In this document: positions 52,901 through 54,668 of the stretch, piece by piece
Layout of the letters: each line of letters opens with the position of its first letter
Position numbering within the stretch: the stretch's first letter is position 1
Sequence record: PP925839.1
Source of the DNA: Escherichia phage PinkRuby
DNA length: 64,000 bases
Reading direction: 5' to 3' (one strand)
Notes under the pieces: model-generated
What the model was told of the DNA's origin: nothing
Database searches by the model: none
The model's input: only the letters and a program-made list of their open reading frames with translations
Translations under genes and position numbers: made by a program

Positions 52901-53852
52901 AAAAACGAAGCGTTTTGTTGCTGAATCTGAAATAGCTATTAATAATCAAACTGGATTACGTATTACGAGTAATGGTGATAAATCTGGTTCAAATTCAGTA
53001 TTATTCAGAAATGATGGATCAGCGTTTTATATTCTTTTAACAGATAAAAACGCAGCAGATGGAAATACGACTGCCACAGAAGGAGATTGGAATGGTAAAC
53101 GTCCTTTCCAAATTAATATGACTTCTGGTGAAGTAACATTCGGAAATAATATTAATATTTCTGGAAACGGAAGCATTACTTGGACAAAAGCCGGAGCAAA
53201 CCCTAGAAATATGAGAATATTTCATGCAGGTGATGCTTCTCGTGGTAACCGTATTGAAATCGCAGATGATACTAATTATATTGCTTACTTTGAAAAAACT
53301 CCAGGTGGAGCTAACCGCTTTGTAGTTAATGGTGCTACTGTAGCTGGTGTTAATCAAATGAATTCATTTGGTATTAACATCAATAACGCGCTTGGTGGAA
53401 ATAGTATAGCATTTGGTGATAATGACACGGGTATTAAGCAAAACGGCGATGGATTATTAGACATTTATGCGAATGGTGTGCAAACGTTCCGTTTCCAAAA
53501 CGGTGATTTGTACTCATATAAAAATATAAATGCCCCAAACGTTTATATTCGTTCTGATATTCGCTTAAAATCTAATTTCAAACCTATCGAAAATGCGCTT
53601 GATAAAGTTGAAAAACTTACTGGTGTCATTTATGATAAAGCTGAATACATCGGTGGAGAGGCAATTGAAACTGAAGCGGGTATTGTGGCTCAAACGTTAC
53701 AAGACGTTTTACCAGAAGCTGTCCGTGAAACAGAAGACAGCAAGGGTAATAAAATACTCACTGTTTCTTCTCAAGCCCAGATTGCTCTTCTGGTTGAAGC
53801 TGTGAAAACGCTTTCTTCTCGTGTAAAAGAACTTGAATCTAAACTTATGTAA
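49989..53852 (+). CDS. 37: Long tail fibre distal subunit gp37 (T2-type, with C-terminal intramolecular-chaperone-like domain)
   Basis: 1287 aa; C-terminal ~100 aa ...[10 protein letters not shown]...[21 protein letters not shown]... resembles S74-type autoproteolytic chaperone domains. Confidence 0.8.
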
Positions 53853-53854
53853 AA

Positions 53855-53870
53855 GAGGGCTTCGGCCCTC
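53855..53870 (+). other. Hairpin gagggc-ttcg-gccctc between genes 37 and 38
   Basis: Seen in sequence; no long T-run. Confidence 0.35.
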
Positions 53871-53882
53871 TAAGGATTTTTA

Positions 53883-54668
53883 ATGGCAATTGTAGGTGTT
53901 CCTGGCTGGATTGGTGAATCTGCCGTGAATGAAACAGGACAGCGTTGGATGGATGCTGCAATGAGAGCAGTCCGTGTTTCAGTTCCCGGTTGGATGAGCT
54001 CAATGGCCGGACAATCTAAAGAAGTATATTATAGCATTGGTGCTAGTAATTCTTATAATAAAGATACATTAATAAACTGGATAAAAGCACAAGGGTCCAC
54101 GCCTGTTGTTATTACTATTACAGGAAATATTGTTTCTCAATCTACTGGTGTTCCATGCTTAGATTTTCCTAGCTCATTAACTAATGCATACGTGACACTT
54201 AATATCAATTCAGGCGTGCATGTTTGGGGCCGTGGCGGGAATGGCGGAAATAACTCTGCCGGTGGAGCAGGAGGAACTGCAATAAATAATGGAATTGGAA
54301 CTAGATTGCGTATTAACAACAATGGTGTTATCGCAGGAGGCGGTGGAGGCGGTGGAGGCGGATATTATTCTCCTTTTTCACAAATGAGATTAACCTTTGG
54401 CGGTGGTGGTGGGCGTCCGTTTGGTGCTGCCGGTGGGTCTGCTAATATGGAACAGGGTGCTACTGCTGGTACTATTTCTGCACCAGGTAAAGGGTCTGTC
54501 AACGGTATCTATAATGGCGGGAATGGTGGTGATGCCGGAGCCGCAGGAGGTAAATGTAATATTCGCGGTCAAGGATCAGAATATAACGGCGGGGCGGCTG
54601 GTAAAGCTGTTACTGGTAATGCTCCAACTTGGACTAAAGTTGGTACAATATACGGTTCAAGAATATAA
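53883..54668 (+). CDS. 38: Receptor-recognising adhesin gp38 (T2-type, glycine-rich motifs)
   Basis: 261 aa; multiple glycine-rich motifs (GGAGGT, GGGGGGGGG, GGGGGRPFGAAGG, NGGNGGDAGAAGG) separated by variable segments. Confidence 0.8.
   Translation: MAIVGVPGWIGESAVNETGQRWMDAAMRAVRVSVPGWMSSMAGQSKEVYYSIGASNSYNKDTLINWIKAQGSTPVVITITGNIVSQSTGVPCLDFPSSLTNAYVTLNINSGVHVWGRGGNGGNNSAGGAGGTAINNGIGTRLRINNNGVIAGGGGGGGGGYYSPFSQMRLTFGGGGGRPFGAAGGSANMEQGATAGTISAPGKGSVNGIYNGGNGGDAGAAGGKCNIRGQGSEYNGGAAGKAVTGNAPTWTKVGTIYGSRI
54336..54362 (+). repeat. (gga ggc ggt)x3 glycine-codon microsatellite inside gene 38
   Basis: Nine consecutive Gly codons; read from sequence. Confidence 0.8.

Follow-up and report, generated by a model that had tools for sequence, protein, structure and literature searches.

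Processing of the T2 gp37 C-terminus and the gp38 adhesin were reportedly worked out by Drexler, Riede and Henning between 1986 and 1989, and the gp37(3)-gp38 tip complex of Salmonella phage S16 is said to have been described by Dunne et al. in 2018 (PDB 6F45); this crystal structure established where gp37 is cut and that gp38 folds as a polyglycine-II sandwich. Proteolytic processing of T2 gp37 was demonstrated (Drexler 1986, as cited in passages of PMC3157838). The cleavage site of S16 gp37 has been mapped at DLNVS^SDRRIKK, and for the fPS phages a site was predicted at DVYIR^SDGRLKI (PMC7917993). According to PMC6851490, the tryptophans of the gp38 attachment domain plug into the gp37 trimer tip in the S16 structure, and the long central polyglycine-II (PGII) helix 3 of S16 gp38 is formed by 151-GGGGGGGG-158. 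The architecture of gp38, consisting of glycine-rich motifs (GRMs) and hypervariable segments (HVSs), has been outlined by Trojet 2011 and in the Dunne/Leiman section of PMC6851490. Furthermore, receptor dependencies have been assigned for several phages: infection by T6 and RB5 depends on Tsx (passages of PMC3157838), Bas39 (FriedrichMiescher) is Tsx-dependent (BASEL supplementary table), Bas35 is known as Tsx-dependent from receptor data, and the receptor of JK38 was determined as Tsx/Kdo by RB-TnSeq (bioRxiv 10.64898/2026.04.02.716166).

In comparison to these systems, the fiber tip encoded in the window, i.e., the whole analyzed stretch of 64,000 nucleotides of Escherichia phage PinkRuby (PP925839.1), can be assigned with high confidence (a probability of roughly 0.9) to the canonical T2/T6-type tip of Tequatrovirus, composed of a cleaved gp37 chaperone, a PGII cap contributed by gp38, and Tsx as receptor. 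Over 24 kb, the phage shares ~96% identity with Shigella phage Sf24, and its fiber genes follow the order gp34-35-36-37-38-t, with gp34, gp35, and gp36 upstream and the holin t downstream. Gene 38 is located right after the chaperone-ending gene 37 and before t, a layout common to Bas39, Solly, T2, Sf24, and Bas45. The open reading frames of both tip genes were confirmed with the lengths stated by an earlier sequence-only reading of this locus. The coordinates of all features are compiled below.

Features of the gene 37/38 region of PinkRuby (positions refer to the window)
Feature	Position	Strand	Description
Gene 37, long tail fiber distal subunit	49989-53852	+	ORF, 1287 aa, 137.8 kDa precursor
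C-terminal end of mature gp37, five residues N1184-V-Y-I-R1188	53538-53552	+	predicted terminal beta-strand, gp38 docking face after chaperone release
Peptidase_S74 intramolecular chaperone, Ser1189-Met1287	53553-53849	+	99 aa, 10.8 kDa, long C-terminal helix at end
Predicted catalytic Ser1189	53553-53555	+	first residue of Peptidase_S74 domain
Predicted catalytic Lys1194	53568-53570	+	five residues downstream of Ser1189
Hairpin AGAGGGC-UUCG-GCCCUCU, intergenic 37/38	53854-53871	+	7 bp, UUCG tetraloop, -13.4 kcal/mol (RNA fold)
Shine-Dalgarno AAGGA of gene 38	53872-53876	+	after hairpin, with U-run
Gene 38, tail fiber tip adhesin	53883-54668	+	ORF, 261 aa, 25.8 kDa
gp38 N-terminal attachment domain, aa 1-42	53883-54008	+	Gp38_N; three-helix bundle with Trp9, Trp22, Trp37
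Recombinant patch in gene 38	54100-54700	+	100-nt window identities, 5-way alignment
gp38 specificity region, aa 116-240	54228-54602	+	glycine-rich motifs (PGII sandwich) between hypervariable loops
Gly9 run, gp38 aa 152-160	54336-54362	+	2.9 copies of GGAGGCGGT
gp38 hypervariable segment 2 YYSPFSQMRLTF, aa 161-172	54363-54398	+	contains R169

The C-terminus of gp37 was found to match Peptidase_S74 (PF13884) with an E-value of 1.1e-14 and 54.8 bits (Pfam cut-off of 22 bits), covering the full 58-position model, a match which at the level of sequence is far beyond chance. It comprises aa 1189-1246, and a further Pfam match, Gp34_trimer, was obtained for aa 510-633. In an alignment of 18 homologs, the S, D, R, L, and K of the S-D-x-R-L-K motif are invariant and 'NDVYIRSD' is conserved around the cleavage site, with position 53550 marking the codon of Arg1188 in NVYIR^SDIRLKSNF. 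This region can be aligned with the above-mentioned sites of S16 and the fPS phages, and the chaperone segment as such is 98% identical to that of T2, 99% to that of Bas39, and 100% to that of Sf24. Cleavage at the predicted site would yield a mature fiber of aa 1-1188 with a computed mass of 127.0 kDa. The phmmer matches of the C-terminus include S16 gp37 (6F45_A) and the ICA domain of MyRF (7DC3). Structural modeling, which had been proposed as a check of the self-cleaving, chaperone-like nature of this segment, gave an AF2 model resembling 7DC3 (E 5e-5, TM 0.56-0.61) and the intramolecular chaperone (IMC) of endosialidase/endoNF (3GW6, 3GUD) in Foldseek, along with the S16 gp37 tip. The model, built as a monomer of a domain that is itself trimeric, is only of moderate quality (pLDDT 72 overall); its IMC part mostly reaches pLDDT 80-96, and residues 162-187 of the model form a long helix, in agreement with the IMC fold of a helix/beta-hairpin core and a long C-terminal helix that builds a trimeric coiled coil. 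Taken together, the S74 match, the invariant motif, and the homology to T2 and S16 agree with the sequence-only reading and support gp37 as carrying a predicted auto-cleaving intramolecular chaperone of an already known family. A separate search with the C-terminal 188 aa mostly returned prophage tail fiber fragments, matching the pre-cleavage segment and not the IMC (mosaicism).

The gp38 protein was recognized by both Pfam families covering its length, GP38 (PF05268; E 4.5e-72, 242.9 bits, aa 47-261) and Gp38_N (PF21721; E 8e-18, 64.6 bits, aa 1-42), at a cut-off of 25 bits for each. Its PDB sequence matches are the gp38 proteins of S16 (6F45_D, E 2.2e-49) and PP01 (9V85, E 2.9e-33), which are also the only Foldseek PDB matches (TM 0.75-0.87) of its AF2 model (pLDDT 91.9). 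In this model the helices of the attachment domain span residues 10-18, 22-29, and 38-41; W9 and W22 are kept in 102-103 out of 110 homologs and position 37 is occupied by W or Y in 90 out of 110. Glycine makes up 23% of the protein and is found at 46 of 125 positions between aa 116 and 240. The invariant glycine columns cluster in the GRMs, while the loops between them are variable (40-sequence alignment, 110 representatives). Pfam, alignments, and AF2 model are in line with the T2/T6-type adhesin with GRMs separating variable loops that had been proposed, and support for PinkRuby gp38 a predicted PGII sandwich on a beta-helix. Nine consecutive glycines had likewise been correctly noted, but not as three perfect copies of (gga ggc ggt): the DNA reads GGA GGC GGT GGA GGC GGT GGA GGC GGA, a 9-nt unit present 2.9 times (TRF score 52) with GGA as last codon. 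This Gly9 run is the equivalent of the central PGII helix 3 of S16 gp38.

Comparison with adhesins of known specificity, another check that had been suggested, placed the Tsx group closest. The gp38 of PinkRuby differs from that of Solly in one residue (I261V, 99.6% identity) and from those of Bas39 and JK38 in two (R169K, I261V, 99.2%), with slur02 and teqhal also being 99.2% identical; on the DNA level, gene 38 shows 29 synonymous and two non-synonymous codon differences toward Bas39. R169 is the sole loop residue unlike Bas39 and JK38, and it is present in the Tsx binders T6, Bas35, Bas36, and RB5. The same 12-residue HVS2 loop, R169 included, is found in Bas35 WilhelmHis and RB5, both Tsx-dependent. 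Within the alignment, the specificity domain falls together with those of the Tsx binders T6 and Bas36 and not with those of OmpA or FadL binders, its identity amounting to 98.6% for Bas39 and 79-81% for T6 and Bas36 (all Tsx), compared with 74% for Bas45 (OmpA) and 55% for T2 (FadL). For every hypervariable segment, an identical counterpart exists in an experimentally Tsx-dependent phage. The variable segments are essentially identical to those of characterized adhesins, a case in which the sequence-only reading would have seen nothing new. By these residues, gp38 shares the T6-like hypervariable set and would fall into the Tsx-specific subgroup of T6, RB5, Bas35, Bas36, Bas39, and JK38. Since its loops correspond to this Tsx-binding set, Tsx, the nucleoside channel of E. 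coli/Shigella, is most likely the primary receptor of PinkRuby.

Several alternative explanations were weighed against this assignment. Related records, e.g., teqhal, teqsoen, and RB18, carry the label 'distal long tail fiber assembly catalyst', according to which gp38 would be a T4-type assembly chaperone absent from the virion, leaving receptor binding to gp37 itself. Yet Pfam places the protein in the GP38 adhesin family, it has 44% identity to the S16 gp38 crystallized in complex with the gp37 tip, and the partner gp37 ends in a cleavable IMC without a T4-type receptor-binding needle domain. T4 gp38 is unrelated in sequence according to PMC6851490, and neither was the T4 gp38 chaperone family found among the gp38 matches nor the T4 gp37 tip among the PDB matches of gp37. 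On the basis of family membership, S16 homology, and the IMC end of gp37, the T4-type role was rejected as practically negligible in probability; the 'assembly catalyst' annotation is a relic carried over with the gene name from T4, and the assignment as adhesin corrects this label on gene 38 in several database records. A second proposal concerns the glycine run of the adhesin. Its 9-nt tandem repeat of GGAGGCGGT, found by TRF, might represent a contingency tract, in which replication slippage alters the run and generates adhesin variants between isolates. Shorter runs with deletions sitting exactly within the tract favor slippage and were detected in more distant relatives, lacking two (P0261), three (P0006 and P0022), or five glycines (P0028). 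However, such deletion variants, spanning 2-5 codons, are rare and represent putative adhesins, some of them on short metagenomic contigs; two could be traced to contigs, both in Krischvirus-like contexts and one on a contig of 1.1 kb. The run length is nine in 59 out of 110 cluster representatives and in 37 out of 38 full-length close relatives (three 90%-identity clusters), and all 29 phage records listed with a gp38 identity of at least 95.8% have a length of exactly 783 nt. In the 40-sequence alignment, Gly152-157 are invariant and Gly158 is at least 90% conserved. The codons of the run, compared across six phages, vary synonymously between Sf24, Bas39, Bas36, and Bas45, so the glycine count is conserved rather than the exact DNA repeat. 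A scan with GGTGTTATYGCA-N9..39-TAYTAYTCTCC for close relatives of any tract length gave no match in IMG/VR and three in the metagenome collection, only one of which (L010) had a gp38-consistent gap of 27 nt; the gaps of the other two are not multiples of three and appear chance-like. In addition, the homologous run of S16 is the central PGII helix with saturated backbone hydrogen bonds (PMC6851490), and GRMs are essential in T6, where their deletion left no functional adhesin (passages of PMC3157838). With glycine length being kept among the 110 representatives and 38 relatives while the DNA repeat varies among the six phages, the slippage hypothesis was rejected as very improbable. The anticipated variability between isolates is weakly borne out, inasmuch as rare deletions exist but close relatives retain nine glycines. 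As a structural element, the Gly9 run is constrained in length and does not represent a contingency or hypervariable tract.

In respect to receptor choice, near-identity to Tsx-dependent phages is strong evidence, not proof, of Tsx use, because one exchanged residue in a gp38 loop can suffice to switch the receptor. The exchange Q206L in RB68 gp38 changed the receptor from OmpF to OmpW (bioRxiv 10.64898/2026.04.02.716166), and PST, only a few HVS residues away from T6, has gained OmpA (passages of PMC3157838). PinkRuby gp38 could accordingly bind a receptor other than or besides Tsx (OmpA, OmpF, FadL, or LPS) via R169 and Ile261, a residue rare at this position (two out of 110 representatives), on the T2-type N-terminal and beta-helix scaffold, and the absence of its exact sequence from a collection of 15 billion proteins can be counted in favor of this option. 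Against it, R169 is typical of the Tsx binders T6, Bas35, Bas36, and RB5 and also occurs in Solly with an otherwise same sequence, the remaining loop residues are those of Bas39 and JK38, and position 261 lies outside the loops at the C-terminal end, with Ile versus Val being a conservative exchange. We consider such a deviating receptor unlikely and retain Tsx as predicted primary receptor. It is a highly doubtful idea that R169 and Ile261 on the Solly-type patch might shift Tsx-loop or secondary-porin recognition, or that the 9-nt repeat might tune the length of the glycine run; if true, the gp38 allele of PinkRuby would offer a natural handle on the tolerance of the PGII scaffold toward change.

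Based on homology to the T2 and S16 systems, assembly of the tip can be envisaged as follows. The 137.8-kDa gp37 precursor would carry the Peptidase_S74 chaperone as its last 99 residues, which presumably nucleates trimerization and folding of the preceding beta-helical fiber. After trimer folding, Ser1189 with Lys1194 is predicted to cut the Arg1188-Ser1189 bond, releasing the 10.8-kDa chaperone and leaving a flat trimeric gp37 tip with its NVYIR end exposed, as determined experimentally in T2 and S16. A single gp38 would then dock onto this tip through the three-helix bundle with Trp9, Trp22, and Trp37, the 3:1 stoichiometry being adopted from homologs. Distally, GRMs would build the PGII sandwich as a hydrogen-bonded lattice with Gly9 as its central helix, presenting the hypervariable loops at the fiber apex, where, as suggested by near-identical proteins, the Tsx-binding set would engage Tsx as primary receptor. 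That a single gp38 copy sits on each gp37 trimer of the virion and binds an outer-membrane protein is inferred from the S16 complex and from the receptor dependence established genetically for Bas39 and JK38, whose gp38 is nearly identical.

The exact sequences of gp37 and gp38 were absent from the collection of 15 billion proteins by exact look-up. As judged from sequence comparison, this is no sign of novelty, because the nearest neighbors are only 1-9 residues away. The biology is not new: processing of gp37, the cleavable chaperone, the polyglycine-II sandwich, and the modular exchange of segments in gp38 had all been established before; the local novelty is only the recombinant patch of ~600 bp in gene 38 relative to Sf24. 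This patch is 83-92% identical to Sf24 and 98-100% to vB_Eco_Solly, with both flanks being 100% Sf24-like, and gene 38 as a whole shows 54 synonymous and seven non-synonymous codon differences toward Sf24. The intergenic hairpin upstream was classified as terminator-like by the scan, and related records (H19, H40) carry a 'terminator' annotation. Sigma-70 promoters around gene 38, predicted by a scan that excludes T-even late promoters, showed no excess (8 versus 5.6 +/- 1.9 in shuffled sequence). For annotation as well as phage therapy and host-range use, the locus can be treated as a T2-type tip with predicted Tsx dependence, so loss of tsx would be expected to confer resistance.

Among the known systems, Solly, Bas39, and JK38 share with PinkRuby the gp38 length of 261 aa and the gene order g37-g38-t; their gp38 ends in Val instead of Ile, and their gene 38 diverges by 1.8-4.2% on the DNA level, nearly all of it synonymous. 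The gp37 lengths range from 1260 aa in Bas39 over 1287 aa in PinkRuby and 1315 aa in Solly to 1341 aa in T2. Sf24 (Tequatrovirus sf24) has a gp37 of equal length, 99.5% nucleotide identity, and the same IMC, its nine amino acid differences all lying outside aa 1189-1287, whereas the seven differences in gp38 stem from the ~600-bp patch. T2 shares the assembly logic of cleaving and then capping, with an IMC 98% identical to that of PinkRuby. In aa 1-115 of gp38 (attachment domain and start of the beta-helix), T2 is 76.5% identical, with Bas45 and Bas39 being closest (95.7-100%), and its specificity domain, 55% identical and directed toward FadL/OmpF, contains a run of seven instead of nine glycines. 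S16 corresponds to PinkRuby in the gp38 fold (attachment helices, beta-helix, PGII sandwich, and long central glycine helix) and in an IMC with S-D-x-x-x-K cleavage motif. It differs in gp38 sequence (44% identity), in the size of the IMC (113 versus 99 aa), in the residues preceding the cut (DLNVS versus NVYIR), and in its target, Salmonella OmpC. The most distant counterparts, the IMC of endosialidase (K1F/endoNF) and the ICA of MyRF, have the Pfam family, the Ser-Lys dyad at the domain start, and the predicted fold in common with the gp37 chaperone at only 15-28% identity, while their passengers are a tailspike stalk and a transcription factor, respectively, in place of the T-even fiber beta-helix of PinkRuby.

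The region constitutes the long-tail-fiber module of a T-even phage, with each gene assignment being backed by Pfam. Over 24 kb, the Shigella phage Sf24 is ~96% identical to the window and other Tequatrovirus genomes show 93-97% identity; the host is therefore E. coli/Shigella.

Genes of the long-tail-fiber module, with the holin gene
Product	Coordinates	Length	Support
gp34	44259-48128		Pfam
gp35	48137-49252		Pfam
gp36	49315-49980		Pfam
gp37	49989-53852	1287 aa	Pfam
gp38	53883-54668	261 aa	Pfam
holin t	54700-55356		Pfam

Within gp37, the distal fiber subunit, aa 441-657 (51309-51959) match the C-terminal trimerization domain of gp34 (Pfam Gp34_trimer; PDB 4UXE, E 1.6e-14), a duplicated module common to proximal and distal half-fibers. 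The hinge protein gp35 exceeds the Pfam gathering threshold for ILEI (interleukin-like EMT inducer / FAM3) at aa 58-126 (48308-48514; 35.5 bits vs 27). A GC-rich hairpin (53854-53871, -13.4 kcal/mol), its 7-bp stem capped by a UUCG tetraloop, separates the stop codon of gene 37 from the Shine-Dalgarno of gene 38 (AAGGA, 53872-53876) and is followed by a U-run. It is recorded as "terminator" in some related records and might act in partial termination or in stabilizing the mRNA.

The sequence-only reading had proposed that gp37 ends in an auto-cleaved chaperone-like segment of ~100 aa, and this was borne out by a Peptidase_S74 ("chaperone of endosialidase") match on aa 1189-1246, covering the full 58-position Pfam model (E 1.1e-14, 54.8 bits vs a cut-off of 22). 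The start of the feature at 53550 is the codon of Arg1188, the last residue of NAPNVYIR, and the remainder from Ser1189 to the end comprises 99 residues (10.8 kDa). An alignment of 18 homologues with PF13884 shows no variation at Ser1189, Asp1190, Arg1192, Leu1193, or Lys1194. The pattern S-D-x-x-x-K corresponds to the Ser/Lys dyad known from intramolecular chaperone domains, an assignment resting on what is established for the endosialidase family, for which PMC7917993 cites Schulz et al. (2010). In sequence searches, the 100-aa tail matches the auto-cleavage domain of MyRF (7DC3) as well as gp37 of Salmonella phage S16 (6F45_A). When aa 1100-1287 were modeled with AF2 (pLDDT 72 overall, mostly 80-96 in the chaperone part), the model likewise matched MyRF ICA (E 5e-5) along with 3GW6, the intramolecular chaperone of endoNF, and 3GUD, while the pre-cleavage strands of the model matched the S16 gp37 tip.

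In S16, the last 113 residues of gp37 are auto-cleaved between both serines of DLNVS^SDRRIKK, thereby laying bare the gp38 docking face, and fPS phages carry DVYIR^SDGRLKI at the corresponding site (PMC7917993). The window's NVYIR^SDIRLKS aligns exactly with these sites, so that the cut is predicted between Arg1188 and Ser1189, which would convert a 137.8-kDa precursor into a 127.0-kDa mature fiber subunit. Identity of the chaperone segment reaches 100% with Sf24, 99% with Escherichia phage FriedrichMiescher (Bas39), and 98% with T2. Because Drexler, Riede and Henning (1986) reported experiments showing that gp37 of T2 is processed, we infer on very strong homology that PinkRuby gp37 is cleaved as well. 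Directly upstream of the site, aa 1117-1184 (53337-53540) share 67% identity with "phage tail protein" genes devoid of the S74 domain in E. coli and Salmonella prophages; this likeness looks like tail-fiber mosaicism between T-even and temperate phages.

The assignment of gp38 as a glycine-rich T2/T6-type adhesin of 261 aa holds (Pfam GP38 243 bits, Gp38_N 65 bits; 23% glycine). Its sequence matches S16 gp38 (6F45_D, E 2e-49) and the receptor-binding domain of PP01 gp38 (9V85, E 3e-33), the only two PDB entries matched by the AF2 model (40-sequence alignment, pLDDT 91.9; TM 0.75-0.87). W9, W22, and W37 are present and conserved, and the glycine-rich motifs form invariant columns of the family alignment. 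In the S16 tip study (PMC6851490), three tryptophans dock gp38 into the gp37 trimer, the glycine-rich motifs build a three-layer lattice of polyglycine-II helices, in which the long run 151-GGGGGGGG-158 is central helix 3 with saturated backbone hydrogen bonds, and the apex that binds the receptor is made up of the hypervariable loops in between. In many database records, the adhesin continues to go by the name "distal long tail fiber assembly catalyst" or "tail assembly protein", a legacy transfer from T4 gene 38 function which is wrong for T2-type gp38. P0040, which represents a gp38 cluster of 155 members, is labeled "receptor-recognizing protein [Bacillus cereus]" and several other entries E. 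coli, Shigella, or Enterobacter; most likely, these are lytic-phage contigs contaminating bacterial assemblies rather than prophages.

Among the matches listed, 20 phage records carry a gp38 at least 99% identical to that of the window. I261V is the sole difference in Escherichia phage vB_Eco_Solly, Bas39 and Shigella phage JK38 both differ from the window by R169K and I261V, and seven positions differ in Sf24. Tsx is the primary receptor of Bas39 (BASEL supplementary table, PMC8594841), and JK38 was assigned to Tsx/Kdo by RB-TnSeq (bioRxiv 10.64898/2026.04.02.716166). Residue 169 is located within hypervariable segment HVS2, YYSPFSQMRLTF, which is shared with Bas35 WilhelmHis, for which complementation of the tsx dependence was shown, and RB5, given as a Tsx user by Trojet et al. 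On alignment with adhesins of known specificity, the specificity domain (aa 116-261) groups closest to Tsx binders (Bas39 98.6%; T6 and Bas36 79-81%), followed by Bas45 (OmpA, 74%), M1 (OmpA, 60%), and T2 (FadL, 55%). Based on these comparisons, Tsx is predicted as the receptor of PinkRuby. In contrast to the specificity domain, the N-terminal half is of the T2/Bas45 type, a mix fitting the modular gp38 pattern described by Trojet et al. The variable segments are in effect identical to those of characterized adhesins (Bas39, JK38, and, for HVS2, Bas35 and RB5), which speaks against novelty. As a caveat to the Tsx prediction, single loop substitutions are able to switch gp38 specificity, e.g., Q206L in RB68 (bioRxiv 10.64898/2026.04.02.716166).

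A slippage-prone (gga ggc ggt)x3 tract that could vary in length between isolates had also been suggested. Nine consecutive glycines are indeed encoded (aa 152-160, nt 54336-54362), by GGA GGC GGT GGA GGC GGT GGA GGC GGA, i.e., 2.9 instead of three perfect copies of the 9-nt unit. Slippage was examined by cluster representatives, 90%-identity clusters, gene spans, and codon comparison. Aligned across 110 cluster representatives, the run holds nine glycines in 59, eight in 26, and seven in 14, the shorter runs mostly arising via substitution at the C-terminal end and by in-frame deletion in a handful only. Exactly nine were found in 37 of the 38 full-length members of three 90%-identity clusters (the exception, P0261, having two fewer), and every one of the 29 listed phage records at or above 95.8% identity has a gene 38 of exactly 783 nt. 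The codons vary, reading GGT GGA GGC GGC GGC GGC GGT GGC GGA in Sf24 and GGC GGC GGT GGC GGC GGT GGC GGC GGA in Bas36, with one synonymous change in Bas39 (gene-wide, 29 codons differ synonymously and 2 non-synonymously). The nine-glycine count is therefore under purifying selection, the 9-nt DNA repeat being an accident of the window's allele; individual glycine-rich motifs are essential in T6 according to Trojet et al. Given rare in-frame deletions exactly inside the tract of gp38 relatives (P0261, -2; P0006 and P0022, -3; P0028, -5), slippage events probably happen, while these four comparisons gave no sign of slippage as a regular source of variation. On the Krischvirus-like contigs encoding P0022 and P0006 (L007 and L008), gene 38 lies among small ORFs and not beside gene 37, in agreement with a 2026 preprint placing gp38 ~55 kb from gp37 in Krischvirus.

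In 100-nt windows, identity to Sf24 amounts to 99-100% from 52800 to ~54100 and from ~54700 onward, dropping to 83-92% at 54100-54700, where vB_Eco_Solly matches at 98-100%. A ~600-bp patch of gene 38 has thus been exchanged by recombination, taking in the beta-helix as well as the specificity domain. The alleles differ mostly synonymously (54 synonymous vs 7 non-synonymous codon differences to Sf24), and the patch agrees with the cassette-like swapping already known for gp38 segments and is not new in kind.

Apart from the small repeat-copy correction, the sequence-only reading was correct. The only points left over are whatever effect Ile261 and R169 may have and the infrequent glycine-run deletions in distant relatives. 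The feature represents a canonical, already characterized T2/T6-type fiber tip with a Tsx-type adhesin, and published, phenotyped phages carry a gp38 one to two residues from that of the window.
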